Positions 11,847-35,781 of a DNA stretch of 64,000 nt are shown in pieces. The DNA comes from an uncultured delta proteobacterium (lineage in GTDB: Bacteria; Desulfobacterota; Binatia; UBA9968): positions 1 to 64,000 of the forward strand of contig CAWFJP010000012.1 in the NCBI GenBank assembly GCA_963816145.1. The letters are read 5' to 3'. Positions within the stretch are counted from its first letter, which is position 1. Every line of letters begins with the position of its first letter. A model generated the notes under the pieces. It was not told where the DNA came from. It saw nothing but the letters and a program-made list of their open reading frames with translations, and did no database searches. The position numbers and the translations under genes are program-made.

Positions 11847-13834
11847 TGAGCATGGCTAAAATTTGGCACCGTTCCGTCGTTACGATCAACGCAGGCTGGC
11901 CAGCACTGCCGTTGTTGGGTTTGCTGTTGATTGTTTTGAGTCTGGGCTTGTCCGGCTGTGCCGCGCAAAACGAACCCCAGGTAAAGCCCCAGCCTGCAGC
12001 GCAACAACCGGGGCGGTCGGCAGTAACTCCAACGCCGGAGGTTGCCGTTGCTCCAGCGCAGAAAATTCAGGATTTAACCGTACGCGAAGAGCGCGGCCAA
12101 ACCATTTTACTCCTTAAATTTTCTCAGCCACTGAGCAACTACCGTCATTTTCCCCTGCCCAACCCGGCGCGTATCGTGTTGGATATTTTTGGCGACGCTA
12201 AACAACCGGGCCTAAGCGAAACCTATCGCATCGATACCAGCGCGGTGGCGACCCTGCGGGTGAATCAACTTGAAGGCGGACTGCGCTTAACCACCGATAT
12301 CGCGGCTGCGACGGTGCCGGCCTACTCGATTACTCAAGATAGCGGGGGTTTGCGCGTTGTCATAGGCGCAGAGAATCCAAGCGCCGGCGCCAAAAAAGAT
12401 GTGACTGTGGTCAGCGGCGGAGTTCGCGCCGATATCCGCAGCCAAGATTCCGCCAAAGCGCAGGGCAAAGCCTCTGGTTCTGACAAGGGATTTGGCGACA
12501 AAAAGGTGTACACCGGGCAGAAGATTTCCCTTGAATTCAAAGACGCCGACATCAAGAACGTCTTCCGGCTCCTGGGTGAAGTCAGCGGCAAGAACATCTT
12601 GGTTACCGACGACGTCAACCGCAAGGTTACGGTACGGCTAATCGAAGTGCCCTGGGACCAGGCCATGGATCTGATCATCGACACCAATGGTCTGGGCAAA
12701 GATGAAAACGGCAATATCATTCGCATCTCCACTGCCGGCCGGCTCAAGGCCGAACGAGATGCGCTCGCGGCCGCAAAGAGATCCGAGGAGAATCTCGAAG
12801 ATCTCCAGACGGCTTACCTGACGGTGAATTATGCTAAGGTGATGAAAGGCGCTGGCGATACCAATACAGATAAGGATCTCGTCGAAAAAGCGAAAGCCCT
12901 GCTTTCCCCAAGAGGAAAGATCGAGGCGGACCAGCGGACCAATACTTTGATCGTCCGGGATATCAAGTCCGGTATCGAAGACGTGCAAAAATTGATTGCA
13001 AGACTCGACACGCGCACGCCGCAGGTTTTGATCGAATCGAATCTAGTTGAAACGACACCCACATTTTCGAGATCGCTCGGTATTGAAATGGAAGGCGTAT
13101 TTAATAATGGCCGGGTTCGCGCGAGTGATCGATTTATGGCAAGTCCGCCATTCGATGGTAGTCCCCAGCCACCGCCAGGTCTCAATCAACTAATTATTCC
13201 AACGAATGGCTTTAAATGGGGCTATTTTGGCAATAATATTACGAGTGTATTGTCGGCTGCCGAAGCGGATGGCAACGTTAAAATCATTTCGCGCCCATCG
13301 GTAGTCACATTGAATAATGTCGAGTCCACGATCGAAAGCGCCAACATCGTCAGAATAAAAACAGGGGCAGCGACCGTGGGAGAAGCTGGAAGTATCCGCG
13401 AGCTCCGAGCAGGAATCATACTTAGGGTGACCCCTCAGGTGTCGGCGGATGGGTTTGTTTTTCTCAATATAAATGCCAAGTCGAGCACGCTAGATTACGG
13501 CAGGTTAACCGATGGAATCCCTCAAGAAAACTCGCGAGAGGCAAGAGCGAACGTGCTTGTTAGAGATGGTGAGACCGTGGTTATCGGCGGCATACTCAAA
13601 GATACCAGCGCAAATTCCGAAAATGGCGTGCCATTTTTGAAGGATGTTCCGGTGCTCGGCTGGTTGTTCAAGAAGTCCTCCTGGCAGAAGGACCTTGAGG
13701 AACTGGTTGTTTTCATAACCCCGCGAATCATCACTTCGGGTTTTGAAAACTTGCCAACCGCCGAACAAATTTGGCGCGATCAAATGAAACAAACGGACGG
13801 CGCTGTCGCACCGGTGACATCCCTAAACCCCTAG
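11846..13834 (+). CDS. pilQ: Type IV pilus secretin PilQ (AMIN plus secretin domains, lipobox LSGC)
   Basis: PARIVLDI (AMIN), YTGQKISLEFKDADI, VPWDQAMD, PQVLIE, DGETVVIGG, VPVLGWLFK, VFITPRI. Confidence 0.95.
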   Translation: MSMAKIWHRSVVTINAGWPALPLLGLLLIVLSLGLSGCAAQNEPQVKPQPAAQQPGRSAVTPTPEVAVAPAQKIQDLTVREERGQTILLLKFSQPLSNYRHFPLPNPARIVLDIFGDAKQPGLSETYRIDTSAVATLRVNQLEGGLRLTTDIAAATVPAYSITQDSGGLRVVIGAENPSAGAKKDVTVVSGGVRADIRSQDSAKAQGKASGSDKGFGDKKVYTGQKISLEFKDADIKNVFRLLGEVSGKNILVTDDVNRKVTVRLIEVPWDQAMDLIIDTNGLGKDENGNIIRISTAGRLKAERDALAAAKRSEENLEDLQTAYLTVNYAKVMKGAGDTNTDKDLVEKAKALLSPRGKIEADQRTNTLIVRDIKSGIEDVQKLIARLDTRTPQVLIESNLVETTPTFSRSLGIEMEGVFNNGRVRASDRFMASPPFDGSPQPPPGLNQLIIPTNGFKWGYFGNNITSVLSAAEADGNVKIISRPSVVTLNNVESTIESANIVRIKTGAATVGEAGSIRELRAGIILRVTPQVSADGFVFLNINAKSSTLDYGRLTDGIPQENSREARANVLVRDGETVVIGGILKDTSANSENGVPFLKDVPVLGWLFKKSSWQKDLEELVVFITPRIITSGFENLPTAEQIWRDQMKQTDGAVAPVTSLNP

Positions 13835-21608: not shown

Positions 21609-22730
21609 TTAGCTGCCGGGAATCGCAGGGGGTCTGATTTCGGCGGTCGGCTGGGGCACTTGATCTTGTTTGGACAAGATCTCTAGTCCGGGAGCATTGA
21701 CATCGCGGCGCACTAGCTTGCCGTTGTCGTAGAAAGACCAAAGATCGGCGACGCCGTCGCCGTTCAAATCGCGCTCCTCTTTCACCACGATTTCGCCGTC
21801 GCGCGAAGTGTCGTAGTAGATCCACAGATCGGGACGCCCCTGGCCGGAGGAATCTTTTTCGACTTTCTCAATGCGGCCGTTCTGATAGCTTGCTCGGTAG
21901 GTCATGCGGCCTTGGCCGTTTTCATCCCGTTCTTCCCGGACGATCGTGTCCTTCTCGTAATAATAAATAGTGTCAGGACGACCGCTGCCGCGACGATCGA
22001 CATCGCGCCGAACCAGCTGACCTTCTTGGTAATAGCTCCACGAATCGACGCGGCCATCCCCTTTGGTCGATTCTTCTTGGCGCACGATCTCGCCGGGCTT
22101 TTGCGGATTGTAGTATATCCAAATATCGGGCACGCCATCATTGTTGACATCGCGGACCTCGACATTGCGAAATGGCGGCGGTGCTGGCGGGGCGCTGGCG
22201 CGCGCGACCGTGATCGCGCCAGGGGAACTACCGGTTTGCGGAGTAGGTGTCGGTGCCGTCGGTGCGGGTTGACTCACTTGCTGCGGCAGTCGTGGCGGTT
22301 CTGAGCTGACCGGTTGGCCGGTCACTCCGGCAATTTGATTTTCCAAGGCGCGCTGACGTTCGATTTCTTGCTCGATGGCGGATTCCAGCGCCCGATCTTT
22401 GTCGGATTCCTTTTGATAGCGCGCCTGAGCTTGGGCCTTTTCCTCTGCGATCTTCGAATCGGCGGTGAACATACCGTAGACAAACCCGATAACTCCCATT
22501 CCCATACTCGCCGGCGCACCGAAAGGACCACCGAAGATGCCGCCGATAAAGGCGGCTTTCTGGGCGCTTTCGACCGCATGAGCCCAGCGTCGATCCTTGT
22601 CGATTTGGGCTTGTTGGGGGGTGAGAATCGCACCGGGGTTTTGTGCGGAACCAGGCGGAAATTGAGTTGCAGCAGGTTCGCAACCGTGGGCGACCAACGC
22701 CAAAAAAATGTATGGAGCGAGCTTTCTCAT
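21609..22730 (-). CDS. Lipoprotein with glycine-zipper-like segment, coiled coil and about 6 DxNxDGxxDxW beta-hairpin repeats
   Basis: Lipobox VAHGC; FIGGIFGGPFGAPASMGMGVIGFVYG; repeats such as DVNNDGVPDIWIYY and DLNGDGVADLWSFY. Confidence 0.82.
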   Translation of the reverse strand: MRKLAPYIFLALVAHGCEPAATQFPPGSAQNPGAILTPQQAQIDKDRRWAHAVESAQKAAFIGGIFGGPFGAPASMGMGVIGFVYGMFTADSKIAEEKAQAQARYQKESDKDRALESAIEQEIERQRALENQIAGVTGQPVSSEPPRLPQQVSQPAPTAPTPTPQTGSSPGAITVARASAPPAPPPFRNVEVRDVNNDGVPDIWIYYNPQKPGEIVRQEESTKGDGRVDSWSYYQEGQLVRRDVDRRGSGRPDTIYYYEKDTIVREERDENGQGRMTYRASYQNGRIEKVEKDSSGQGRPDLWIYYDTSRDGEIVVKEERDLNGDGVADLWSFYDNGKLVRRDVNAPGLEILSKQDQVPQPTAEIRPPAIPGS

Positions 22731-22805
22731 GACAACCCATTAACCTGCGCAATCCTACTTGATTTCACGACCCCTGGGCAACCCGGCTATCCATTCCGTG
22801 ATAGC

Positions 22806-23963
22806 CTACTCCGGTGGCCGGGCGATAGCCATAACCTGGTACTGTTCCGCCACGCTACCGAACGCCGGTGACGCCCTCGGTGGCTCGCCGTCGGTTACCG
22901 TTTCCTGACCGACGAGTTGCCCGCCCTTCAAGACATAGCGGGCAGTAATCTTACCCTGGCCGTTTTGATCTTCAAGCTGTTCGACACGCTCGCCGTTGAC
23001 AAAATTCACCCAGACATCGACGCGCCGGTCGCCGTTGGTGTCGGCTTCTTGAGCGCGAATTTGACCCTTTTCGTATAGTATCCTCAGATCGAAAAAGCCA
23101 TCGCCGTCGGTATCACGCTCTTCGCGCGTCAATTCATCGTTTTCAAAATAGTAAACAATGTCCCATTTGCCGGTTGCCTTGGTGTCGCGTAGCCGTTTGA
23201 CAATTTTTCCCTGGGAGAAAGACTCGATCATATCCATGCGGCCGCGTTTGCCGGTGTCTTCCTCGCGGCGCGAGATCTGTTCGCCGTCAAAAAGAATGAT
23301 CCGGCTGACTTTGCCATCGCCGCGCAAATCCTCCTCTTGCCTGATCAAGCGGCCGGCTTGATAATAGCCCCAAAGATCGATCTTGCCGTTGAATTTACGA
23401 TCCATCTCCTTGCGCACGAGCTGGCCATTTTCATAAAACGAAAAACTATCCGGCTTGCCGTCGTCGTTGGTGTCTTCATCGACCCGGCTGATCTGACCGT
23501 CGCTCAGATGCACTGTGCGGTTAGACTTGCCACTCAATTTAGTATCTTCCTCACTGCGCACCGGCTGGCCGTTCTGATAATAAACCCAAACCGTGGGACG
23601 ACCTGAGCGGTTGGGATCTTGGCCGCGCCGCTCGATTTCACCGTTAGCGTTAAAGAAAAACCAGGTGTCGATAAGGCCATCGTTCTTACTGGCGACCTCT
23701 TGGCGCACCGGTCGGCCCCCTTCATAGAAAGCGATGGTGTCGGCCTTGCCGTCGAAGTTAAGGTCCTGCTCTACCCTTTCGACTTGGCCCTGCTTGTTAT
23801 AAAAGGTCCAACGATCCATTTTACCGTCACCGTTGGTGTCCTGTTCCTGGCGGGCGACGTTGCCGCGCTCGTCATAAAAAAAACTGGCGATAGGGTATTG
23901 GCCGTAGGCTGGCGAGGATGATTGCAGTAACAAAACTACGATCAAGAACAATTTGGCGGTCAT
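22806..23963 (-). CDS. Exported protein made of about 13 tandem ~24-aa repeats (G-x-+-x-R-x-E-x-D-x-N-x-D-G-K-x-D-x-W-x-x-Y)
   Basis: Signal peptide followed by repeats such as GNVARQEQDTNGDGKMDRWTFY and GQISRVDEDTNDDGKPDSFSFY. Confidence 0.85.
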   Translation of the reverse strand: MTAKLFLIVVLLLQSSSPAYGQYPIASFFYDERGNVARQEQDTNGDGKMDRWTFYNKQGQVERVEQDLNFDGKADTIAFYEGGRPVRQEVASKNDGLIDTWFFFNANGEIERRGQDPNRSGRPTVWVYYQNGQPVRSEEDTKLSGKSNRTVHLSDGQISRVDEDTNDDGKPDSFSFYENGQLVRKEMDRKFNGKIDLWGYYQAGRLIRQEEDLRGDGKVSRIILFDGEQISRREEDTGKRGRMDMIESFSQGKIVKRLRDTKATGKWDIVYYFENDELTREERDTDGDGFFDLRILYEKGQIRAQEADTNGDRRVDVWVNFVNGERVEQLEDQNGQGKITARYVLKGGQLVGQETVTDGEPPRASPAFGSVAEQYQVMAIARPPE

Positions 23964-24011
23964 GTCGAATTACCGCATCATGGGTAACTAACAATCTGTG
24001 AAGCGAAGGTC

Positions 24012-24040
24012 AGGCTACGCCAGGGGTTTAGCGATGTCAA
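24012..24040 (-). promoter_or_regulatory. Putative sigma70 promoter of the repeat-protein/Ton operon
   Basis: Minus strand TTGACA (24040-24035), 17-bp spacer, TAGCCT (24017-24012), about 50 bp upstream of the 23963 start. Confidence 0.55.
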
Positions 24041-24201
24041 TTGAAGCATCAAGCTTCGCACAGGTGAATCAGTACGTTTTCGATCGAGCGAAATCTTGGA
24101 ACTGAGGTATCGCATTCCATGGCCCTTTATCTTGATAATCTGGCAACGTCAGGTAAATTCAACCCAAGCAAATTCAACGTCGAAAGCTCCGCAGTTTTCC
24201 G

Positions 24202-25950
24202 GTGCCGCCTGCTTCAACCACCAAATCTGATACGGACCACGACTCCACTCGGCAAAGTCCGGCGGATCGCTGGTTCCCATGGGCATTGTTCGCCTTTGTC
24301 TTGTTGATGCTGTTTTATCGACTCGGCGGCCCCGCCCTGTTCGAACCGGACGAAGGTAGGAATGCCGAGAAGGCGCGTGAGATTCTGCTGTTGAACGACT
24401 GGATCACGCCCCACGAGAACTTCCATCCGGTACTCGATAAGCCGATATTTTTTTATGGGTTGATCGCGCTCTCGTATAAACTCTTCGGCGTCTCCGAATG
24501 GGCGGCCCGATTGCCATCGACGCTGGCCGCCTTCGGCTGTCTCCTCGTAGTCTACTTTTTTGTGCGCCGCTGGTGGGGTGAGTGGGAAGCTCGTTGGAGC
24601 GTGCTGACTCTAGTCACCAGCACGGGATTTTTTATCTTTTCGCGCATTGTGATTTTCGACATGACTTTAACCGCTTGCATAACCCTGGCCTTATTGGCCT
24701 TTTACCAAGCTACCCAGGAATCCGAGTCGACCGCAGGCTGGGGTACCTGCGCGATTTTATACATCGCCCTCGCTGTCGCAACGCTCACTAAAGGTCTCGT
24801 CGGTCTGGTGGTACCGGGGATGATTTTTTTCTTCTATTTACTGCTTAGCAAGAGCTGGCGAGTTCTGGGAAGGATTCGCTTGCTACCCGGGGCGGTGTTG
24901 TTCCTTTTGATCGTCACGCCTTGGTACGTCTTGGCCGAAATGCACAATCCCGGCTATCTTCGCTACTACCTTTGGGAAGAGCATTTTGGCCGCTTTGCCA
25001 CGATGAAATTTGACCGTTTTAGCCCCTGGTACTTCTATCTCTATGTCGTGCCGCTCGGTTTGCTGCCTTGGACCTTTTTGCTGCCGGTTATGGTACAGAA
25101 TTATTGGCGACGCAGGCTCGACGATAGAACGCTCTGGTTGATCTTGTGGGCGGTTTTGCCGATCTTGTTTTTCTCGTTTTCCAAGGCCAAATTGCCGCAT
25201 TACATTTTGCCGAGCTTCCCGGCACTAGCGATCTTGATCGGTGTCGCGCTGTCGCGCGCATTGAGCGAATCTCAAGATCTTTGCCGCTTCGGCTTCACCG
25301 CGGGTTGGGTGACCTTGAGTTCGCTGTTCTTTTATTCGATCGCCGGAGTGATGCGTCCGGAGATATTGCCCGAGATTGCCCGCGGCCGCTTCGCTAGCAT
25401 CACGATTTTATTGTGGACCAGTGCGGTGATTTCGCTCGGGCTAGTTTATCTCACCGGCAAACGAGCTCGCTGGGCGAAGCTCAACCCGAGGTACGTTTTT
25501 TTCAGCCAGGGTGTCGGCTTGTTGTTCTTTGTGGTTACGCTCGCCGAAATGATGGTGCTGATAGCGCCGGCGAGATCGGCGAAAGCAATTGCCGGGAAGG
25601 CTTTACCCTTGCTGTCGCCAACAACGCAAATGGTCTCCTATGACACCTATGCCGAAGGATTGCCATTTTACCTGAAAACCGAGAAACCGTTCTGGGTGGT
25701 AACCCACAGCAACAAGAAGCGCACATTTTTGGGCAATTTTTACGCGATTACGGGGCAACCCGAACCAATCAGCCGCTGGGGCAAAGCTTTGTTTAGTTTT
25801 GAAGAGTTTCGCGAGATTTGGCAAAACTCCGACACGCCAATGGTGATTCTAGTAAAAGAAAAAAATCTGCGCGGATTGGAACAGCTCGTGGGCGCGGTTC
25901 CTAAAACAGTCGCGGCGGACGACGAGTATTTGCTGGTTACACGTCCCTAG
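24202..25950 (+). CDS. ArnT/PMT-like (GT-C) undecaprenyl-phosphate-sugar transferase
   Basis: LFEPDEGRNAE.AREI, DKP, EWAARLPS, TKGLVGLV.PG, PWY, SKAKLPHYILP motifs; many TM helices. Confidence 0.9.
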   Translation: MPPASTTKSDTDHDSTRQSPADRWFPWALFAFVLLMLFYRLGGPALFEPDEGRNAEKAREILLLNDWITPHENFHPVLDKPIFFYGLIALSYKLFGVSEWAARLPSTLAAFGCLLVVYFFVRRWWGEWEARWSVLTLVTSTGFFIFSRIVIFDMTLTACITLALLAFYQATQESESTAGWGTCAILYIALAVATLTKGLVGLVVPGMIFFFYLLLSKSWRVLGRIRLLPGAVLFLLIVTPWYVLAEMHNPGYLRYYLWEEHFGRFATMKFDRFSPWYFYLYVVPLGLLPWTFLLPVMVQNYWRRRLDDRTLWLILWAVLPILFFSFSKAKLPHYILPSFPALAILIGVALSRALSESQDLCRFGFTAGWVTLSSLFFYSIAGVMRPEILPEIARGRFASITILLWTSAVISLGLVYLTGKRARWAKLNPRYVFFSQGVGLLFFVVTLAEMMVLIAPARSAKAIAGKALPLLSPTTQMVSYDTYAEGLPFYLKTEKPFWVVTHSNKKRTFLGNFYAITGQPEPISRWGKALFSFEEFREIWQNSDTPMVILVKEKNLRGLEQLVGAVPKTVAADDEYLLVTRP

Positions 25951-26043
25951 GCGGAAGCGATTAGCGAATCTGCGCTAGTTCCGCGCCGTATCATCATGCG
26001 TCACCGGCGGCGTCGCAGGTTACTGTGAAACGAAAGGATCTGC

Positions 26044-26868
26044 ATGAATAGTTTCGTCATCGCCGCGGTGTTGGGGATCGTCGAGGGACTTACCGAGTTT
26101 TTACCCGTGTCCTCTACCGGCCATCTAATTATCGCCGGTCATCTGCTTGGTTTCGTCGGTGACAAGGCCGACAGTTTTGAAGTGGCGATTCAGTTGGGTG
26201 CGATCCTATCAGTGGTTTGGCTATATTGGCGCAGGTTTGTTGGATTGGTGCCTGGTACGGCGCAATTCACATTAACGGCTGCGTCGAGCTTAAATGGTTG
26301 GCCGGGCCTCTGGCGCATCGCATTGGCAACGCTGCCGGCGTTAGCGGTGGGCTATGTGGCGCGCCACAGCATAAAAGCGCAACTTTTCAATCCGGAAGCG
26401 GTCACGCTGGCATTGGCCGTTGGCGGTGTCGCGATTCTGCTGGTAGAGCGGCTGGCCGAGCGCCGTCGCGCCAATGAATTGGACAGGGTGACTTTAACGC
26501 AAGCTTTGGGTGTGGGGCTATTTCAAATCCTCGCGCTATGGCCCGGCACTTCGCGGGCGGCGGCAACGATTGTGGGCGGCATGATTCTCGGACTCGATCG
26601 CAAGGCGGCAGCGGAGTTCTCATTTCTGATCGCCGTCCCGGTGTTGTTCGCGGCATCCGGTTATGAGTTGCTTAAGCTGCGCGATCAATTTGTCGCCGAC
26701 GATGGGATCGGTCTCGTCATCGGGTTCGTGGTTTCCTTCCTGGTGGCCTTGCTGGCGATTAAAGGCTTTGTCAGCTTTTTGAGCCGTGGCAAGTTGGCGC
26801 CGTTTGCCTGGTACCGCATCGTCGTTGCGCCGATATTCTATTTTCTCACCCGCGGTTCGAGTCTGTGA
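26044..26868 (+). CDS. uppP: Undecaprenyl-diphosphatase (BacA)
   Basis: GIVEGLTEFLPVSSTGHL, IQLGAIL, PGTSR, AAEFSFL. Confidence 0.96.
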   Translation: MNSFVIAAVLGIVEGLTEFLPVSSTGHLIIAGHLLGFVGDKADSFEVAIQLGAILSVVWLYWRRFVGLVPGTAQFTLTAASSLNGWPGLWRIALATLPALAVGYVARHSIKAQLFNPEAVTLALAVGGVAILLVERLAERRRANELDRVTLTQALGVGLFQILALWPGTSRAAATIVGGMILGLDRKAAAEFSFLIAVPVLFAASGYELLKLRDQFVADDGIGLVIGFVVSFLVALLAIKGFVSFLSRGKLAPFAWYRIVVAPIFYFLTRGSSL

Positions 26869-26919
26869 GACCATTTCACATTTCCCGTCAGAGCTCCTAG
26901 AGCAGATAGCCAGCTAGCT

Positions 26920-27681
26920 CTAGTCATGATCGTGACGATGTTTGATCCAATCGAAGATCTGATTGCGATAGATATAGCCGCTCACGAGACCCGCCAGGGT
27001 GACGGCCATGAAAATAGCGAAGGTGTGATACTGCTGATTTCTGATGGTCGCGCCCTGCATGGTGAGAAGATAAGTTCCAGGGATACGGCCGATAACCGAA
27101 ACCAGGAGAAAGGTGGTTACGCTCATGCGGCTCAAACCGAGCACGTAGCAAAGATAATCTTTCGGAAAACCGGGAAACAGAAACAGCACGAAGCAGATAA
27201 CCACGCCGGTTTTAGTCGTGAGGAAATTAAATTTCGCTAAGACGTCGCGCTTGATAAAGCGTTCAACGAATGGCCGGCCAAGTATATTTGCAAGCTCAAA
27301 AGCCACCCAGGAGCCGATCGACAGGCCAATGGTGGATAGGATGAAGCCAATGGTCTCGCCGTAGACAAAGCCGCCGGCAACGCCGGTAAGCTCCCCGGGA
27401 AAGGGGGCGGCGATCACTTGAAGAATCTGCAAAAGCACGAACACCGCCGGCGAGTAGGGGCCCAAGGTTTGGAGAAATTTGCCAAGTTTATCGCTGCTGG
27501 AATAGATACCCTCGAAATCGTCGAGTTCGGCGCCCGGCGGCGCGAAGGCGCTGAACGGCCGCGGAATGTAGCGGCTGAAAAAAAACAGCAGCAATATGAG
27601 ACCGACGAAGATGGCTCCGCGTATGGCGAGCCGGCGGCGCTGATCGCTCATCCGGCGCTTTATAGCAACTATTAATTCCAA
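26920..27681 (-). CDS. TVP38/TMEM64 (DedA/VTT superfamily) membrane protein
   Basis: LQILQVIAAPFPGE..G.AGGF.YG, LFPGFPKDYLCY.LGL, GRIPG motifs. Confidence 0.88.
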   Translation of the reverse strand: MELIVAIKRRMSDQRRRLAIRGAIFVGLILLLFFFSRYIPRPFSAFAPPGAELDDFEGIYSSSDKLGKFLQTLGPYSPAVFVLLQILQVIAAPFPGELTGVAGGFVYGETIGFILSTIGLSIGSWVAFELANILGRPFVERFIKRDVLAKFNFLTTKTGVVICFVLFLFPGFPKDYLCYVLGLSRMSVTTFLLVSVIGRIPGTYLLTMQGATIRNQQYHTFAIFMAVTLAGLVSGYIYRNQIFDWIKHRHDHD

Positions 27682-27765
27682 AGACGAGAGCCGGATGGCG
27701 ACTTACCTGTCGCTATCGGGACAATTTGTCTTGCTTGGTCGGGCCAGGGTTGCTACAAAACAGAG

Positions 27766-29325
27766 TTGGACTATCGATATTTACCCTTCATGTTTGCCGA
27801 TTTGAAATGCGGTGCTCTAACTGAACTGGAATCTGGTCGCAGTTGGAGCAGCCAAGTGATCGCCGAGCAAGTGGCCGGCCGCACCGCCCACTTGCGCAGC
27901 TTTGGATTACAGCGCGGCGATCGCCTGTTCATTCTTTACGGCAATAATCTCGAATTCTTCGTCAACCTTCTGGCCGCGTGGAATGCCGGCGCGAGCGTGG
28001 TGCCGGCGGACAGCCGGTTGACACCGTTCGAACTGAAAAACTTAGCGCGAACGGTCAATCCTAAAATCGCTTTGATCGATCCGACGGTCCCGCCGGCACT
28101 AGGAGACGCACTTGCATCGCTGGGAGTCAAACTTCTCACTTCCGGTGAATCAACTATCGACAAGATCTCGTCTGTCCGAGCCGGCAGTTTGGCTTGCGCC
28201 GCGCGGCTCGACGATGAGGCGTTGATCTTGTTTACCTCTGGCACCACCGGAGTGCCCAAAGGCGTGATTCATACACATCGGTCGCTGCGCGCGCGCTGGT
28301 TCAGTTTGCGCCAGAGCCTCGGTATCGAGTGCTATCGTCGCACGCTTTGTCTATTGCCGACTCATTTCGGTCACGGTTTGATCTGTAACAGCCTCTTCCC
28401 CTGGCTTTTCGGCCAAGATCTCATCATTGCCCCGCCATTCAGTCCTTATTTATTACTGCGTCTCGGATCGATCATCGATGAGTGGAACATTACTTTTTTA
28501 TCCTCCGTGCCGTCGATGTGGGGTTTAAGCTTGAAAGGCAGTAGGCCTCCCCAGGGTAAAACCTTGCGACGCATTCACTGCGGTTCGGCGCCGTTGTCGG
28601 CGCACTTGTGGCGCCAAATTCAACAGTGGTCGGGAATCGCCGATGTCTATAACGCCTACGGTATCACCGAAACCGGCAGTTGGGTGGCTGGCACGAGCGT
28701 TGAAAACTTCGAACCAGAGGATGGGCTCGTCGGCGTGCCTTGGGGCGCTGCGATCAAGATTCTCCCGAGCGCCGAACCGCAGACGCCATTTGCCGATGGC
28801 GCCGAGTGCAAAGCCGACGAAACCGGCTACGTTTGGATCAACACGCCGGCGCTGATGCAAGGCTATTACGGTCAGCCCGACCTCACCGATCAGGTGATTT
28901 CCGGCGGCTGGTTCGTTACGGGTGACATGGGGCTAGTCGATGAGCGGGGCAGATTTTATCTAAAAGGGCGCGAGCGCGATGAAATCAACAAAGGCGGCGC
29001 CAAAGTCTATCCAGCTGACGTCGACGCGGTAGTCGAACGATTCGAGCAGGCCACTGCGGTATGTACCTTTGCCATCGCTGACCCCGCCTACGGTCAAAAC
29101 GTGGCGATGGCGGTGGTGCTGAGCCAGCATGATGACGCGACTCTCCGTCAGCTTCATGCATGGCTCAGAGAACATCTAGCAGAATTCAAAATACCCCAGC
29201 GCTGGTATGTCGTCGGGGAGCTGCCAAAAAATTCGCGGGGAAAGGTGAGTCGCGACACGGTGCAGGAGCTTTGTGCGGCCTTAAAGCCAGTAGATTTGGT
29301 TGGATTGTTGCGGCGCGGAACATAG
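27766..29325 (+). CDS. Class I adenylate-forming enzyme (acyl/aminoacyl-AMP ligase)
   Basis: ILFTSGTTGVPKGV, YGITETG, GWFVTGDMG, KGR...INKGG.KVYP, PKNSRGKV. Alternative ATG start at 27790. Confidence 0.92.
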   Translation: MDYRYLPFMFADLKCGALTELESGRSWSSQVIAEQVAGRTAHLRSFGLQRGDRLFILYGNNLEFFVNLLAAWNAGASVVPADSRLTPFELKNLARTVNPKIALIDPTVPPALGDALASLGVKLLTSGESTIDKISSVRAGSLACAARLDDEALILFTSGTTGVPKGVIHTHRSLRARWFSLRQSLGIECYRRTLCLLPTHFGHGLICNSLFPWLFGQDLIIAPPFSPYLLLRLGSIIDEWNITFLSSVPSMWGLSLKGSRPPQGKTLRRIHCGSAPLSAHLWRQIQQWSGIADVYNAYGITETGSWVAGTSVENFEPEDGLVGVPWGAAIKILPSAEPQTPFADGAECKADETGYVWINTPALMQGYYGQPDLTDQVISGGWFVTGDMGLVDERGRFYLKGRERDEINKGGAKVYPADVDAVVERFEQATAVCTFAIADPAYGQNVAMAVVLSQHDDATLRQLHAWLREHLAEFKIPQRWYVVGELPKNSRGKVSRDTVQELCAALKPVDLVGLLRRGT

Positions 29326-29376
29326 GGGTCAAATGGCGACGATAAATTAAAAAAAATCAATCGTTGGAAGTGTACA

Positions 29377-29637
29377 ATGACAGACCGGGACCGGCATAGG
29401 CTAGAGCTGATTGAATTCTTGCGGACGATTCAAAGACCAGACTATCCGCTCGCGGCCATCGACGAAGAATCGGGTTTGGTGGAGTCTGGCTTGATAGATT
29501 CGTTGGCGCTCCTGCAGATCGTTACCTATTTGGAGCAAACCTATCGCGTTGACTTTAATGAACGCGGCATCGATCCCGATGACCTGCGTTCGGTCAATTC
29601 CATCCTCGCGTTGATCGCCCGCGAATCGGCGTCATGA
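29377..29637 (+). CDS. Acyl/aminoacyl carrier protein (DltC-like)
   Basis: 86 aa, acidic, LVESGLIDSLALLQIVTYLE phosphopantetheine-Ser motif. Confidence 0.9.
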   Translation: MTDRDRHRLELIEFLRTIQRPDYPLAAIDEESGLVESGLIDSLALLQIVTYLEQTYRVDFNERGIDPDDLRSVNSILALIARESAS

Positions 29638-31031
29638 ATGTCATCGGTCTGCGCGCGGCTTACCGGACTATTTCGCAGTTCCATGAAAACCGCCGGCTGA
29701 TTGCTTGGCTGAGCGCCCAACCCTGGGTGATCTGGCTGAGTCCGGAACGGCGCAAGTCGGTGCTTTTTTACGGCGCGATGATTGCCGGCGCGGTTGGCGT
29801 CTTCAGCCGCAATGCGAAGTGGCGCGACTATCGCGCACTGGCGCCTTGGCTGGAGCATGGCTTAGCGTTTGTGTTTTTACTCGGCCTCATTTACGCCCTC
29901 TACCGTGCCGCTATCAACTTCAAAGATCTGCCGCCGAACGTGCGAAGGCGTCCGCAGATTTGTTTCCATTTACTGTTCTGGCTGCTGCTGGGGTTCCTGT
30001 GGTTTTTCCCGGAGCGAGGCGGATTAAGTTTAGCCGTTTTGTCGGTGATTGTAGCATCGTTGCCGTACTTGATCTGGCGTGCGGGCTATATGCTTTTGTC
30101 GGGTCAGCGCGGCAAGGCGCTCAACAGCCGATTTCGCGATCATCTTTTTTATATCTGGCCGATTTGGGACGGCACCAATACACCGCCCGGCAAGGGCCAT
30201 GACTATTTATCCCGTATGGTGGCGCAGACGCCGGAAAGCTATGCCCGGACCCTACTCGGCGGCTTCAAACTGTTGCTCCTGGTCGCGCTGTGGTCCGTCT
30301 TTTTGGAACTGATCGGCGCGCTGGTTTACGGCGATCCCAAAAGTTCGTTTAACGCGCTGTTCCGCGGTTACACTCTTGGTATCCCGCGGCTGAAGCAAAT
30401 CCTCAGTGAGCAAATGGCGCTGCCGTTGGTGCAAGTATGGCTCAGCCTATATCTCGAATTGATCTGGGAGACACTTTCGCTGGCGGCCAAGGGGCATGTC
30501 TGGGTCGGCGTGATCCGGCTGTTTGGCTTCAATATTTTTCGTAATACCTATAAGCCGCTGTTGGCGCAAACCATCGTCGAGTTCTGGAACCGTTATTATT
30601 ATTACTTCAAAGAATTGATGATGGAGTTTTTTTTCCTGCCGATTTACGCGCGCTATTTTCGGAACTCGCCGCGGTTACGGGTCATCAGCGCAGTTTTCGC
30701 CGCCGCCTTTGTCGGCAACATGTATTATCATTTATTGCAGCACAAAGAGCCGTTGATCTTCGGGGAGTGGAGCAAACTCTGGCGGCTACTTGGTGCGCGG
30801 TTGATCTACTGTGGTATGCTCGCCAGCGGTATCGCGGTCTCCATGCTGCGCCAGCAGCGTCAACGCAGCGGGGCGCACGTGATGCCAGCCGGCGCGTCGC
30901 AGCGTTTGCGCCGTCTGCGCGGCATTGCCGGGGTTTGGACGTTTTTCGCCGTCATCAATTTCTGGAACGTCATCAGCAATCTCACGATCGCCGAGCGAGC
31001 AAGGTTGTTTTTCTCACTGTTTGGTCTCTAA
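29634..31031 (+). CDS. Divergent MBOAT-family membrane acyltransferase (DltB/AlgI-like)
   Basis: GFNIFRNTYKPLLAQTIVEFWNRYYYYFKE...FFLPIY parallels the MBOAT NF..P..A....FW.RWH...YIPL motif; candidate catalytic His in GNMYYH; ATGA overlap with the carrier protein gene. Confidence 0.78.
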   Translation: MNVIGLRAAYRTISQFHENRRLIAWLSAQPWVIWLSPERRKSVLFYGAMIAGAVGVFSRNAKWRDYRALAPWLEHGLAFVFLLGLIYALYRAAINFKDLPPNVRRRPQICFHLLFWLLLGFLWFFPERGGLSLAVLSVIVASLPYLIWRAGYMLLSGQRGKALNSRFRDHLFYIWPIWDGTNTPPGKGHDYLSRMVAQTPESYARTLLGGFKLLLLVALWSVFLELIGALVYGDPKSSFNALFRGYTLGIPRLKQILSEQMALPLVQVWLSLYLELIWETLSLAAKGHVWVGVIRLFGFNIFRNTYKPLLAQTIVEFWNRYYYYFKELMMEFFFLPIYARYFRNSPRLRVISAVFAAAFVGNMYYHLLQHKEPLIFGEWSKLWRLLGARLIYCGMLASGIAVSMLRQQRQRSGAHVMPAGASQRLRRLRGIAGVWTFFAVINFWNVISNLTIAERARLFFSLFGL

Positions 31032-31065
31032 TTCCCGCGAAGCCCGCACCCTGTAAATATTTGAA

Positions 31066-33048
31066 ATGCCGCGCACCACACTATCCATCGCCGTTTGTCT
31101 CGTCGCCATAGTGATTTTGTCGGGTTTTCGCCTGTGGCTCTATTGGGAGCGACGTGCGGATATGCGGTGCCTGACGCTCGGGCAGAAGTTGAAATTGTTC
31201 TGGATCGGTCTCCGGCTTGACGGCATAATTGTCAGCCGGGTTTGCTTGCCTTTGGCATTTGCTGCTTTGGCGCTGCCGGATGGCTGGCTGCTTGCCAGTC
31301 GGTTTTTCTACTGGGTGTACCTCGGCATTGTCTATTTGACGCTTTTTTTCGCCGAGATCGCCGGGATTTATTTCTTTCGCTTCTATGATTTCCGTCCCAA
31401 TTATCTGGTCTTTGAACATGGCGCGGATCGCGAAGTTCTCAGGGCCGTCGCCAAAGCTTATCCGCTCGTGCGCATAGTCGTGTTAAGCTTCACTGGCGCG
31501 TGGTTGGCGGTGATTGCCGTGCAGTTGCTGGCTCCAATGGCGCAGGTCGGCACTGTGAGAAACGATTCCATGTGGCTGTGGGATCGCGGTGTGACATTTC
31601 TTTGGCTTCTCCTAGCGGGGTTCGCTAGCCGCGGTACCTTCGATCACCGGCCGCTCAATCCGAGTTTGGCGTCGTTTACGACCAATCGGATCGCCAATGA
31701 GATTGCCTGTTGCGGGATATTCAATCTGCTCTACGAGTGGAGCCAGCGGGCGAAAAATGAGTTCGCTGCGCTCAAGAGCGTAACCCAAGTGCCATCCGCC
31801 GATGAAGCGTTTGGTGTTGCCCGCCGGATGCTATCTCAGGACGGTCCATTCACTGACGATGGCCCGAACCCACTGGCGCGCCGAATTGCTAGCTCTGCGC
31901 CACCGGCACCCCTCAACGTGGTGGTAGTCATAATGGAGAGTTTTACCGGACGGCTGACCGGATGTCTGGGCGGCCTGCCGGCGCTGTCGCCGGAGTTAGA
32001 TCGGCTGGCCCAAGAAGGCTTGTTATTGGAACGCTGCTACGCCACCGGAGAGCGAACGATCCAGGGACTGGAAGCGGCGGTTTGCTCGTTCCCGCCGCTG
32101 CCTGGCGAAGGTGTGGTCAAGCGGCCGCAGGCGCGGCAAAACTTTGCCACGTTGGCAAGCGTGCTCAGACAGCGCGGCTATGCGACGAGCTTTATTTACG
32201 GCGGCCAGGGGATTTTCGATCACATGCTCGGCTTCTTTCTCGGGAACGGCTTTGACCGCTTTATCGAAGAGAAAGATTTCCCGTCGCCATACTACAAGAC
32301 CCCCTGGGGTGTATCCGATGAAGATTTGTTCGAACGGGCCGATGACGAGTTCCGCCGCTACCATGAGGCCGGCCAACCCTTTTTTGCCACCCTGTTGACG
32401 GTATCGTTGCACTCGCCCTGGCAGTTCCCCGCGGGCAAGATCGACCCGCTGGCCGCTGACACCAAGGCGCCGCCGGGCTTTGAGCTCAATGAGCTCAATA
32501 ACTTTCTTTACGCGGATTGCTGCATCGGCAAATTCATTCGCCTGGCGCGCCAGGCCCGCTATTTCGACAATACGCTATTTGTATTTGTCGGCGATCATGG
32601 TGTGCACCTGCGCGGCAACGAACTTATTCCGATCGACGAATACATCGTTCCGGCGCTGTTTCTCGCGCCGAAACATGTGGATGCCGGTCGTATTTCCATT
32701 GTAGCCAGCCAGATGGATTTGCCGCCGACTATCATGGGAATCGTCGGTGGTGAATACCGTAGCGCATTTTTCGGCCGCGACATTCGCAAACCGCAAGCGG
32801 AAGATCCGTTCGCCATAGTTATCTATAAGAAGAAGCGCTACGGCATCGTCACGGATCGGGAATTGATTGTGCTGCGCGAATCGGGCGACAGGCTTGCGTA
32901 CGAGCGCGCCGCCCACGGCAAACCCTGGACGCAGATTGCAATGCGTGCGACCCAAGCGGCACGAACTCAGAACGGCTTGGCGATACTGCGCAGCGCCGAG
33001 GATTTGCTCGTCAGCGGCCGCTATCACGCCGATCCCCACAATCGGTAA
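31066..33048 (+). CDS. LTA synthase/MdoB(OpgB)-family membrane phosphotransferase (alkaline phosphatase superfamily)
   Basis: About 5 N-terminal TMs; VVVIMESF, ERTIQG (Thr nucleophile), TVSLHSPW, FVGDHG, SQMDL.PT. Confidence 0.88.
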   Translation: MPRTTLSIAVCLVAIVILSGFRLWLYWERRADMRCLTLGQKLKLFWIGLRLDGIIVSRVCLPLAFAALALPDGWLLASRFFYWVYLGIVYLTLFFAEIAGIYFFRFYDFRPNYLVFEHGADREVLRAVAKAYPLVRIVVLSFTGAWLAVIAVQLLAPMAQVGTVRNDSMWLWDRGVTFLWLLLAGFASRGTFDHRPLNPSLASFTTNRIANEIACCGIFNLLYEWSQRAKNEFAALKSVTQVPSADEAFGVARRMLSQDGPFTDDGPNPLARRIASSAPPAPLNVVVVIMESFTGRLTGCLGGLPALSPELDRLAQEGLLLERCYATGERTIQGLEAAVCSFPPLPGEGVVKRPQARQNFATLASVLRQRGYATSFIYGGQGIFDHMLGFFLGNGFDRFIEEKDFPSPYYKTPWGVSDEDLFERADDEFRRYHEAGQPFFATLLTVSLHSPWQFPAGKIDPLAADTKAPPGFELNELNNFLYADCCIGKFIRLARQARYFDNTLFVFVGDHGVHLRGNELIPIDEYIVPALFLAPKHVDAGRISIVASQMDLPPTIMGIVGGEYRSAFFGRDIRKPQAEDPFAIVIYKKKRYGIVTDRELIVLRESGDRLAYERAAHGKPWTQIAMRATQAARTQNGLAILRSAEDLLVSGRYHADPHNR

Positions 33049-33084
33049 ACGCTGAGCAGTTCTGTTACTCCGTATGGCCTCGTC

Positions 33085-35781
33085 CTAACGGCTCTTTTGC
33101 ATCTCGTTGAGCAGGCCCTCGACTTTTTTCAGCTCTTCGCCGTAGCCGGCCCAGTTGCCTTGCTTGAGGAGTTCCTGGGAACGCTGGAAATGGTCTAATG
33201 CCTGGCGTGCCAAGGTTTGATCGGCTTTGACCGGTGTCGGAGCCGCCGTACTGGCAGGTTGTGGCGTCTCAGCCGCCGGCTTGGTGCCGAAAATTCGCTG
33301 CAGCGCTGTATCGAGAGTCTCTTCCATGGCGATGCGGTTACCGAAGGCCACCACCACCCGCTTCAATTCCGGCAAGGATCCTTGCTCCGCAGCCAAATAG
33401 ATCGGTTGCACGTAAAGCAAGGATTTTTCGATGGGGATGGCAAGCAGACTGCCGCGGAGGACTTGAGAACCGCGCTGGCTCCACAGGGTCAGTTGTTGGG
33501 AGATGGTGGTATCTTGATCGATCCGGGCATCGATCTGTTTGGGGCCATAGACAAGTTTTGCCTTGGGAAATTCCAGCGCGGTGAGCTTGCCGTAATTCTT
33601 GCCGTCGCTGCGCGCCGCTAGCCAGGAGCGCATGTTGTCCCGTTTATTGGGCGTGAACGGCAGCAGTAAAATAAATTCTTCTTTCTCCTCCCCCGGCAGG
33701 CGCATGATCGTGTGGTAGGCCTCCATTTCGCTCTCGCGGCCCTCCACGTTTCGCCGCGGGATACTCAGGAGATCCTCCTTGTTAAAAAACACTTGCGGGT
33801 CCTGCATATGGTAAGTGGCGTAGACATGGGCTTGGATGGTGAAGAGATCCTGGGGATAGCGCACATGGGCACGCAGATCTTCGGGCATGGTGTCGAGGGG
33901 CTTAAATACTCGCGGAAAAATCTTCGCGAATGACTGAATGATCGGATCCGTTGGGTCGCTCAGGTAAATTTCCACCGTGCCGTTGTAGGCGTCGACCACG
34001 GCCTTGACCGAATTACGTACATAATTCGTTCCTTGCCGGCTCAGCGGTTCGGAATAGGGGAAACGGTCCGAGTTGGTGTAGCCGTCGACGATCCAAAATA
34101 GCCTGCCGCCCTGGGCAATGACGATATAAGCGTCGCGATCAAAGGTGATAAATGGGGCGATTTTTTTGACCCGCTCCTGGATCTGTTGATGGTAGAGAAT
34201 TCGGCTTTCGCTGATCAGATCCTGTGACAGCAGGATGCGCATGGACGCATGGTGCGCGGCGAAGACCAACTTGCGCCACAAGCTGCCGATCGGCACACCA
34301 CTTGTCCCTTTGTAGGTGGTGTAAACATTTTGATCGCCGGCGGGATAGTCCAATTCCTGCGACTTGGTTCGCACCAGAACATAATCAGTGGCGAGCTCGC
34401 CAAAATAAATCTCGGGACGGGTAATCTTGAGTGAGGTAGTCGCCAGCGGTGGAATATCCTTGATGAAAAACTCGGGTTGGCCGCTAGAAGTCACCTGATT
34501 AACCGGTCCAAAGACCACGCCGTGGCCATGCGTGAAAGTCAGATGCTCATTGATCCAGTTTTGACTTTGCAGATGCCGATGCGACAGCTCGCGGGCGGAC
34601 AACATCACCTGGCGATAAGTGCCGTCGATAACATAGCGATCATTGTCGACGTCGACGAATTTGTAATAAGGCCGGATCTCCTGTAACTGGGCGTAGGTGG
34701 TCAGCAGCGGCCGATGGTCCCATAGGCGGATATTATTTATAGTCGATTCATTTCGCTTCAAGTCTGCCGCGGTTAACTGCTCATCAGCCGGAAACTCCTT
34801 GGTTTCAATCCTATCCAGGCCGAAGGCGAGGCGGGTGAATTTGATCCTGCGCTCGATGAAGGGCCGTTCCGCCTCGATTTCATTGGGTGTCACGCGGAAG
34901 CGCTGCAAAAGCGTCGGATAGGCATTGAGACCCAATAAGTGCACCGCCGCCAAGACTCCGACGCCGAGGAAGACAAATTTATATCCAGTGCGGGCTATCT
35001 GCGCGAAGCAGAGTGCCGACGCGATCAGAGCCAAAAACGTCAGCACGCGCAGCGCCGGTAGTGTGCCATAGATATCGGCAAAGCTCGCGCCGAAAGAAAC
35101 GCCACGCGGCGAATGCAACAGATCGAAAGCGTCGAGGTAGTAGCCGCCGGCCTTGATCAATAGGAACACACCCAACAGGATCAGCAGATGACTACGCGCG
35201 CGCTCACCCAGAAAAAGTCCGCGCGCGGTGTACTCAATACCGCGATAAACCAGGTAGACGGCGGCGCTAGCCACGGCAGTCAGACCGATGGCGAAAATCG
35301 CCCAATGATAAACGATCTGCAGCCAGGGCAAGATAAACACATAAAAACTGACATCGCGGCCGAACTGGGGATCTGTCATGTTGAACGAAACCCGATTGAT
35401 AAATAGAGACAGTTGTTCCCAGCTCGCCGCGCCTTGGGGTGCTGCCATCAGCCCAATCAGGAGCGCACCCGGAAGGAGCAGCCGCTTGAGGATGGGATCG
35501 ATGAGTTCTGGCGGCGGCAGCTCAATAATGTTTTCCGTGCTCGAGTAGCGAAATCCACCTGATGAAGACGAAGCGATCTTCAAATTGACATAAATCATTA
35601 GGGCCAACAGCGTACCGGCGGCAGTGCCGAGTGCGAACTTGTACGATAAGATCGTTGCAAAGAGCTGGCCGTAGCCAACGTCTTGGAACCACAGCCAGTC
35701 GACGTAGAGACCGATCGCTTGGCGAAAAAACATTACGACAAGAAACAAAATCAATATAGTCACGCCGCCAAATTTGCCCAT
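33085..35781 (-). CDS. UPF0182 family membrane protein
   Basis: DWLWFQDVGY, DPQFGRDVSFYVF, NIRLWD, QLQEIRPYYKF.DVD.DRY, NYVRNSVK, H.RYP.DLF motifs. Confidence 0.93.
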   Translation of the reverse strand: MGKFGGVTILILFLVVMFFRQAIGLYVDWLWFQDVGYGQLFATILSYKFALGTAAGTLLALMIYVNLKIASSSSGGFRYSSTENIIELPPPELIDPILKRLLLPGALLIGLMAAPQGAASWEQLSLFINRVSFNMTDPQFGRDVSFYVFILPWLQIVYHWAIFAIGLTAVASAAVYLVYRGIEYTARGLFLGERARSHLLILLGVFLLIKAGGYYLDAFDLLHSPRGVSFGASFADIYGTLPALRVLTFLALIASALCFAQIARTGYKFVFLGVGVLAAVHLLGLNAYPTLLQRFRVTPNEIEAERPFIERRIKFTRLAFGLDRIETKEFPADEQLTAADLKRNESTINNIRLWDHRPLLTTYAQLQEIRPYYKFVDVDNDRYVIDGTYRQVMLSARELSHRHLQSQNWINEHLTFTHGHGVVFGPVNQVTSSGQPEFFIKDIPPLATTSLKITRPEIYFGELATDYVLVRTKSQELDYPAGDQNVYTTYKGTSGVPIGSLWRKLVFAAHHASMRILLSQDLISESRILYHQQIQERVKKIAPFITFDRDAYIVIAQGGRLFWIVDGYTNSDRFPYSEPLSRQGTNYVRNSVKAVVDAYNGTVEIYLSDPTDPIIQSFAKIFPRVFKPLDTMPEDLRAHVRYPQDLFTIQAHVYATYHMQDPQVFFNKEDLLSIPRRNVEGRESEMEAYHTIMRLPGEEKEEFILLLPFTPNKRDNMRSWLAARSDGKNYGKLTALEFPKAKLVYGPKQIDARIDQDTTISQQLTLWSQRGSQVLRGSLLAIPIEKSLLYVQPIYLAAEQGSLPELKRVVVAFGNRIAMEETLDTALQRIFGTKPAAETPQPASTAAPTPVKADQTLARQALDHFQRSQELLKQGNWAGYGEELKKVEGLLNEMQKSR

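Follow-up and report, generated by a model that had tools for sequence, protein, structure and literature searches.

A candidate carrier-fed acylation cassette built around a divergent DltB-like MBOAT protein in Binatia and other bacteria

Four adjacent forward-strand genes (27766-33048) in a 64,000-nucleotide stretch of contig CAWFJP010000012.1 (assembly GCA_963816145.1), referred to here as the window and derived from an uncultured member of the Binatia (lineage UBA9968), are read as a cassette for carrier-fed transmembrane acylation of the Dlt type, in which the acyltransferase is a divergent DltB-like membrane protein of the MBOAT superfamily that is tied, in this lineage, to a putative phospho-alcohol transferase of the LtaS/OpgB type; the probability of this reading is put at about 0.6. 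The cassette encodes an adenylating ligase of the ANL superfamily (27766..29325, +; 519 amino acids when read from the TTG at 27766 and 511 from the ATG at 27790), a dedicated carrier protein (29377..29637, +; 86 amino acids, with its phosphopantetheine site at Ser42 in an IDSL motif), the MBOAT-like membrane protein (29634..31031, +; 465 amino acids, from a family without a Pfam model) and an LtaS-like, VP1736-like protein (31066..33048, +; 660 amino acids, with an N-terminal hydrophobic region and a periplasmic alkaline-phosphatase-fold domain). The intergenic distances are 51, -4 and 34 bp, the stop of the carrier gene and the start of the MBOAT-like gene overlapping by 4 bp. These open reading frame (ORF) coordinates agree with those of the first-pass annotation, an earlier description made from the letters of the window, and the motifs that it quoted for all four proteins can be read in the translations. 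The arrangement is more than chance, as the same four-gene order occurs in at least 14 related loci and the genes occur, or are missing, together. No paper on the four-gene cassette was found in the full-text literature, a coverage that excludes subscription journals, which agrees with the earlier claim that the pathway is undescribed in print, and the cassette is judged to be a genuine variant, so far undescribed, of transmembrane acylation of the Dlt type.

The behavior of the four genes as one unit is seen within the genus of the host. Of the 24 other genomes of the genus that were searched, 10 have a match to the membrane protein; the overall figure, with the genome of the window included, is 12 of 41 (G005 was counted as a non-match). 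Two genomes of the same genus, G007 (98% complete) and G018 (92%), have no match, and in both the gene order runs from a radical-SAM gene, an ABC permease gene and a UPF0182 gene directly to DedA, UppP and an ArnT-like GT-C gene and on to TonB, which is the synteny of the window minus exactly the four cassette genes. Because exactly these genes are missing from a conserved synteny, the four behave as one unit and the LtaS-like gene belongs to the module in this lineage, which bears out the earlier view of the four genes as a single pathway unit. All four genes are also found, in the same order and at 55-57% identity, in a genome from another family (G031). The neighboring UPF0182 membrane protein gene (window 33085-35781, -; Pfam 6.9e-294) is convergent with the cassette, is syntenic in the Binatia-type loci and stays in place when the cassette is absent. 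In two further genomes the MBOAT-like gene is broken by in-frame stops or a change of frame (G003:C17:92725-93293 and G021:C85:11551-12910), the carrier gene also being split in G003; these copies may be decaying genes or assembly indel errors.

The membrane protein, which carries EFWNRYYYYFKE, has no match in Pfam or NCBIfam at E values up to 10 and 1, other than a chance match to DUF2842 at 0.26, and the best 120 of its 889 homologues are all unnamed or labeled "hypothetical", none having a precomputed Pfam domain. Close homologues bear the names of Candidatus Binatia and of "Deltaproteobacteria" metagenome-assembled genomes (MAGs), and the family comprises 702 representative clusters (50% identity) at E ≤ 1e-3 and 196 at E ≤ 1e-30. 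When a profile of 88 family members was compared with the whole PDB, DltB was the sole match (E 0.0028), over the motif G-F..N..KP....EFWNRW. An AlphaFold2 model of the protein (pLDDT 94.2, pTM 0.91) retrieved only MBOATs at the top ranks of a Foldseek search of the PDB, with DltB first (6e-7, TM 0.52-0.59), followed by PORCN, HHAT, DGAT1, MBOAT7, LPCAT3 and ACAT, and with probabilities dropping to 0.16 or less from rank 30. Alignment of the family with four canonical MBOATs of the same order using hhalign gave a probability of 90.7% (E 1.2e-6, 187 columns), and the nearest cluster in a protein-language-model atlas was "MBOAT family protein" (score 0.98). Because the AlphaFold2 model, the Foldseek ranking, the DltB profile match and the hhalign result agree, the protein is assigned to the MBOAT superfamily, with DltB as its predicted nearest relative, a kinship visible by fold and profile only; the MBOAT fold that the first-pass annotation had made a point of possible refutation is thus the predicted one. 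Across the 88 proteins, R320, Y324, K326, E327, F333, P336, R349, G361, N362, L396 and S403 are invariant, and H366 (96%), Y392 (96%) and H288 (92%) are nearly so.

A scan of one genome per species identified 426 relatives of the membrane protein, the best 79 loci of which were examined, and neighbors were counted over the 46 that had 4 kb or more of sequence on each side. A ligase gene lies near the MBOAT-like gene in 44 of these 46 loci and a carrier gene in 43; the two loci without a ligase (L044 and L064) are missing the carrier too. An alkaline-phosphatase-superfamily membrane enzyme is encoded nearby in 26/46 loci and a lyase of the ICL/PEP-mutase family in 21/46, so that one or the other is present in 36 and both in 11. 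The trio of ligase, carrier and MBOAT-like genes, arranged either in that order or as MBOAT-ligase-carrier, occurs in Binatia, Beta- and Gammaproteobacteria, Verrucomicrobiota, Acidobacteriota, Nitrospirota, Gemmatimonadota, Methylomirabilota and Thermodesulfobacteriota, and carriers of the cassette include the wastewater genera Accumulibacter and Propionivibrio as well as Binatia, Verrucomicrobiota and Acidobacteriota from soil.

The earlier expectation that the LtaS-like gene would be a conserved neighbor holds for the Binatia-type lineage (the 13 loci whose membrane protein is at least 50% identical), in which this gene is present in 11 loci and the lyase in one, and does not extend to the family as a whole, in which any alkaline-phosphatase-superfamily enzyme is found in the 26 loci given above; in the other 33 loci the corresponding counts are 15 for an alkaline-phosphatase-superfamily gene and 20 for the lyase. 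The partner enzymes fall into three subfamilies, namely LtaS-like, CptA-like (830 bits with the CptA model, over its cut-off) and a Phosphodiest-type protein of 834 amino acids. Among 78 copies of the membrane protein, counted after the short L027 and L038 were dropped, such a partner is encoded within 400 bp of the MBOAT-like gene in 24 and elsewhere in the fetched stretch in 20 more. On a tree obtained by a quick maximum-likelihood search alone, the label "LtaS-adjacent" requires at least six changes, so the association of LtaS-like with MBOAT-like genes recurs in separate clades. Three betaproteobacterial loci (L059, L061 and L081) contain the MBOAT-like and LtaS-like genes without a ligase or carrier gene, and one of these, L061, shares its MAG with a full cassette (L086). 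In L036 (MGSS01000028.1, 3909-9847), three tandem MBOAT-like paralogues are accompanied by a single ligase, a carrier and an LtaS-like gene, a layout that suggests several acceptors for one acyl donor.

The lyase, which adjoins the carrier in the loci where it is linked to the cassette, has as its nearest solved relatives petal death protein, oxaloacetate acetylhydrolase and 2,3-dimethylmalate lyase, which hints at a small organic acid as the acyl group. True PEP mutases have the motif EDKx5NS. The cassette-linked enzyme carries the lyase-type loop EDQKRPRRCGH, and scores highest with the methylisocitrate lyase model, at 168 bits where the cut-off is 354; on these two grounds PEP mutase activity and phosphonate chemistry were rejected for it.

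The ligase matches the Pfam families AMP-binding (5.1e-57) and AMP-binding_C (1.6e-8), and its translation contains TSGTTGVPKG, LPTHFGHG, NAYGITETG, GRERDEINKGG and SRGK; the ANL core motifs A3, A5, A7, A8 and A10 are readable and invariant among 36 orthologues. These orthologues begin with MFxDL, so the true start is probably the ATG at 27790 (M9) rather than the TTG at 27766. The enzyme is unusually conserved, its orthologues being 52-59% identical across phyla with a mean column identity of 66% over the 36 sequences. Its best NCBIfam models are fatty-acid and malonyl-CoA ligases (long-chain fatty-acid-CoA ligases, FadD7), all far under their cut-offs, and the top PDB matches of the orthologue profile are oxalate-CoA ligase 5ie0 (2e-56) and FadD13 (7e-55); FadD5 also ranks high among the PDB matches of the ligase, and DltA is absent from the 60 best shown. 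Fatty acyl-AMP ligases are marked by an insertion; the present ligase, at approximately 505-511 amino acids, has the length of short- and medium-chain ligases and no extra insertion. In amino-acid-activating ligases an Asp in motif A4 binds the α-amino group, and the A4 region here reads THFGHG, without Asp. By these comparisons the enzyme appears to be of the acyl-CoA-ligase type and not DltA-like, as the first-pass annotation had also judged, and the acyl group is predicted not to be an amino acid, because the matches are to acyl-, malonyl- and oxalyl-CoA ligases and A4 has no Asp. Relative to the oxalate pocket of Arabidopsis AAE3, as described in PMC8905533, Ser289 is kept as S274 and His319 is replaced by S305, so that one of the two oxalate-specific residues given there is retained, and G202, G273 and G299 stand for Val215, Cys288 and Ala313. 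The three glycines and S305 would therefore make the pocket larger and leave it polar. Oxalate had been considered as the specific acyl group on account of the 5ie0 match and of the lyase resembling oxaloacetate acetylhydrolase and petal death protein; it was rejected because of Ser305 in place of AAE3 His319 and the three pocket glycines, and a somewhat larger polar acid is a possible substrate.

The carrier matches Pfam PP-binding (PF00550), the check proposed at first pass, just over the cut-off (2e-4; 22 bits vs. 20.8). Its NCBIfam matches are weak, to OlsHI-ACP (9e-7), AsbD (2e-6) and DltC (2.3e-3), none near cut-off, the DltC model giving 17.9 bits against a cut-off of 68. The genome of the window has a single carrier of this type. 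It also has a second MBOAT-like copy (G000:C8:43661-45028; L013:7641-9035), 55% identical and without a ligase, carrier or LtaS-like gene, which adjoins TctABC-type transporter genes and a glycine-reductase-B-like gene. Given the single carrier, both membrane enzymes of this genome may draw on one and the same ligase and carrier.

The LtaS-like protein matches Pfam Sulfatase (PF00884) at 1.5e-43, in line with the first-pass proposal, and has its hydrophobic segments within residues 1-164. The description of it as an LtaS/MdoB-type enzyme with a Thr nucleophile and metal ligands is upheld by an alignment in which E291, T/S331, H449, D510 and H511 are conserved in 23/23 relatives. Against the PDB, it matches the Vibrio protein VP1736 (3lxq) at 2.1e-82, LtaP (4uop) at 4.8e-18 and LtaS (2w8d) at 9.5e-8; the NCBIfam model for phosphoglycerol transferase I (OpgB) gives 74.9 bits against a cut-off of 572 and that for LtaS 38.2 against 970, so there is no equivalog-level match to LtaS or OpgB, and all Dlt and LtaS equivalog models score far under cut-off. 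By sequence, therefore, the protein is far closer to the uncharacterized VP1736 than to LtaS. No paper mentioning VP1736 or 3LXQ was found. The "Dlt/LTA" framing of the first-pass annotation is set aside on these grounds, since VP1736 (2e-82) is far nearer than LtaS, the Dlt and LtaS equivalogs are far below cut-off and nothing points to a polyglycerolphosphate polymer. A complex prediction for the MBOAT-like (residues 66-465) and LtaS-like (1-600) proteins with alignment inputs gave 0.00 and 0.00, which speaks neither for nor against binding.

The host is a diderm and is predicted to make lipid A: as the first-pass annotation had concluded for the outer membrane, a secretin domain is encoded at 13256-13732, ExbB and TonB are also encoded in the window, and LpxC is encoded in the genome. 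The ligase would adenylate a carboxylic acid that is not an amino acid and is probably small and polar, and would load it as a thioester on the phosphopantetheine at Ser42 of the carrier, as family chemistry and gene linkage suggest. The carrier would then dock at the cytoplasmic face of the MBOAT-like protein, by which the acyl group would be passed to the periplasmic face, a step proposed because the fold is DltB-like and the trio is almost always linked. The LtaS-like enzyme would take a phospho-alcohol head group (e.g., glycerol phosphate) from a phospholipid and attach it to an acceptor in the envelope, after which the acyl group would go either to this head group or to the acceptor itself. 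The pathway would build or phospho-decorate a glycan or lipid and acylate it, as the first-pass annotation had proposed by inference.

Among the closest known counterparts is the Dlt pathway of Firmicutes (DltB 6BUG, 8JEM), in which a ligase, a small dedicated carrier and an MBOAT-fold protein are likewise encoded together and in which DltB shares the E-F-W-N-R motif with the membrane protein of the cassette. In that pathway, teichoic acids are D-alanylated through DltA, DltC, DltB, DltX and the SGNH protein DltD, as set out in PMC12148441. The cassette differs in having an acyl-CoA-type ligase and a Tyr for the His of RWH, none of DltA, DltX, the FXYXXF shuttle and DltD, a diderm host, and as recurrent partner an alkaline-phosphatase-superfamily transferase or a small-acid lyase. 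By analogy, PatA/PatB, AlgI/AlgJ and WssH also use an MBOAT fold to move an acyl group over the inner membrane of diderms; these pairs, which acetylate polymers, depend on acyl-CoA, a C-terminal FXYXXF and an SGNH partner, according to the same source (PMC12148441). A canonical AlgI/PatA-type MBOAT is present in the genome of the window (G000:C9:18757-19461; L109:1162-2634, -; Pfam 125 bits), ends in FIYFQF and is followed directly downstream by a 366-amino-acid ORF; it has only the core motif in common with the membrane protein of the cassette. A different Dlt-like system occurs amid GT4 glycosyltransferase genes in two genomes of the genus (L018:7105-12712 in G014:C11, and G008:C22), where an 849-amino-acid protein weakly resembles the MBOAT-like core (residues 281-454) and has a GDSL/SGNH domain at its C-terminus; next come genes for a carrier, an ANL ligase and an acyl-CoA dehydrogenase. 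Carrier-dependent envelope acylation or aminoacylation in diderms is also represented by the dra (dlt-like) locus of Bordetella, the dlt genes of Dickeya and Pectobacterium, and AlmEFG, which adds glycine to Vibrio lipid A; likened here by description, these systems use DltA-type amino-acid ligases with canonical DltB/DltD or the LpxL-type AlmG. LtaS, LtaP, OpgB (MdoB) and VP1736 (PDB 3LXQ) have an N-terminal membrane region and an alkaline-phosphatase fold with the residues E, T/S, H, D and H, as does the LtaS-like protein, which, unlike LtaS, LtaP and OpgB, is not an equivalog of any named enzyme.

Several observations weigh against the reading of the four genes as a Dlt-type acylation cassette. 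The Pfam models PF03062, with which the first-pass annotation had proposed to confirm the MBOAT assignment, and PF13813 do not detect the membrane protein. The histidine of RWH (DltB His289) aligns to Tyr322, in keeping with the FWNRYYYY noted earlier in place of FWxRWH. The conserved catalytic histidine of MBOATs lies in WHG (DltB His336). Profile alignments end just short of this position, for which N362 and H366 are the candidates: when the hhalign alignment is extended without gaps, N362, an invariant residue, falls on the canonical histidine of WHG, and H366 follows one helical turn on. FXYXXF, the acyl-tyrosine shuttle motif located at the MBOAT C-terminus or on the DltX microprotein in PMC12148441, is absent from the family, the C-terminal consensus of which is F-x-x-S-L-F-G, without Tyr; the ending of canonical MBOATs from this order, FIYFQF, conforms to the motif. 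No DltX-like small ORF was found in 20-40 kb of the window save one out-of-frame chance match inside the ligase gene. No SGNH/DltD/PatB/AlgJ-type gene was found among the 18 Pfam-scanned neighbors in the window, as the first-pass annotation had noted, and no recurrent SGNH neighbor was detected in those of the 22 largest neighbor clusters from the 79 loci that were Pfam-scanned or match window genes (c14, c17 and singletons fell outside the scan). With neither an acyl-tyrosine shuttle nor an SGNH transferase, the final acyl transfer would probably be direct or proceed through a different relay. On the side of gene content, 20/46 loci have no alkaline-phosphatase-superfamily gene in the stretch fetched and 10/46 have neither that gene nor the lyase; the cassette of the window has no adjacent lyase, the ICL/PEPM paralogues of its genome being at most 35% identical to the cassette-linked lyase; and the ArnT-like GT-C, UppP and DedA genes stay put in cassette-less genomes. 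As they are kept without the cassette, these three genes say little about its target, and they were rejected as pathway members; the ArnT-like protein scores 190 bits with the ArnT model against a cut-off of 567. The alignment of the ligase pocket makes oxalate itself unlikely as the acyl group, and acyl group, acceptor and direction of transfer are all inferred.

Absence of an SGNH protein, of DltX and of the tyrosine shuttle would be expected of a lipid acyltransferase, and the four genes might serve the remodeling of membrane lipids, with a fatty acyl group on the carrier, the MBOAT-like protein acylating a lipid or lyso-lipid in the manner of eukaryotic LPCAT, DGAT and ACAT, and the LtaS-like protein altering the head group. 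Long-chain fatty-acid-CoA ligases and FadD7 among the best NCBIfam models of the ligase, FadD13 and FadD5 among its top PDB matches, and the lipid-acylating DGAT1, MBOAT7, LPCAT3 and ACAT among the fold matches are in its favor, but DltB is the best structural and the sole sequence-profile match, every fatty-acid-ligase model is far below cut-off, the ligase has the length of short- and medium-chain enzymes without the extra insertion, and the lyase in 21/46 loci is related to enzymes that release small acids; this explanation is considered unlikely. A similarly low likelihood is given to two uncoupled modifications of the envelope, in which the LtaS-like enzyme would phospho-decorate a target other than the one acylated by the trio. 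The 20/46 full-flank loci without an alkaline-phosphatase-superfamily neighbor and the varying subfamily of the partner would fit such independence, whereas the gain or loss of the four genes as a block, the typical position of the alkaline-phosphatase-superfamily gene directly beside the MBOAT-like gene in several separate clades, and the MBOAT-like and LtaS-like pairs that occur without ligase or carrier all argue for coupling.

The gene content formally parallels DltA, DltC, DltB and LtaS, and the carrier matches DltC weakly (2.3e-3), so a true Dlt/LTA system in a diderm, in which the LtaS-like enzyme would make a polyglycerolphosphate polymer for D-alanylation, was also weighed. It is considered very improbable: the ligase is not DltA-like, DltD is absent from the window neighbors and DltX was not found, the DltC and LtaS models give 17.9 bits vs. 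68 and 38 vs. 970, and the LtaS-like protein is closest to VP1736 and to the primase LtaP, not to the polymerase. Least probable of all is a chance adjacency or a secondary-metabolite pathway unrelated to the envelope; pairs of ligase and carrier are common in natural-product clusters, and a cluster of radical-SAM, SDR and methyltransferase genes lies 4 kb downstream, yet the linkage is kept across phyla, the genes are gained or lost together, and the four proteins include two polytopic enzymes of the envelope.

If the Dlt-type reading is correct, the cassette would be a second, mechanistically different way to carry an acyl group over the inner membrane. Surface charge, resistance to antimicrobial peptides and phages, and host recognition are governed by decorations of the envelope, among them D-alanyl esters, phosphoethanolamine and aminoarabinose. 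The cassette provides the first functional setting for VP1736-type LtaS-like proteins, which have a solved structure but are uncharacterized, and for an MBOAT branch that is missed by current domain libraries and comprises approximately 700 representative clusters in many Gram-negative phyla. As to the acceptor, genes for CptA and a GT9 heptosyltransferase adjoin betaproteobacterial cassettes, and the genome of the window appears to make lipid A; the best lead is therefore lipopolysaccharide (core or lipid A), with periplasmic glucans or a glycolipid as alternatives. A broader proposal, held tentatively and as distinctly less probable than the Dlt-type reading itself, is that a widespread diderm branch of MBOATs without shuttle or SGNH partner is teamed with LtaS-like, CptA-like or Phosphodiest-type transferases to build a composite "acyl-phospho-alcohol" decoration on lipopolysaccharide or another molecule of the periplasmic face. 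If true, this would be a Gram-negative counterpart of D-alanyl-glycerolphosphate that carries a small organic acid other than an amino acid, and would add a new chemical class to the known envelope modifications.

Near-identical DNA is present in 15 metagenome runs from soil and wetland. Three metatranscriptome libraries, all distinct, contain short contigs that match portions of the ligase, MBOAT-like and LtaS-like genes at 97-100% identity, which hints weakly at expression, with DNA carry-over as a possible source; regions of the cassette not covered by contigs from the RNA libraries carry no information. A scan for promoters and terminators over 23800-33400 was uninformative, the number of sites not exceeding that in shuffled sequences. 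Elsewhere in the genome, the MdoG (OpgG) family matches at G000:C30:158083-158696 only as two short pieces in short open frames, which could be a truncated or broken periplasmic-glucan gene. Downstream of the cassette, the segment 36995-42803 (+) of the window encodes B12-binding radical-SAM, SDR, FAD-binding, haem-oxygenase-like/TENA and O-methyltransferase proteins and resembles a small biosynthetic cluster. Upstream, neighboring genes at 21609-23963 (-) encode two repeat-rich proteins (373 and 385 amino acids) that cross-match in relatives and show weak FG-GAP, MORN and Lsa25.6-adhesin-like matches.

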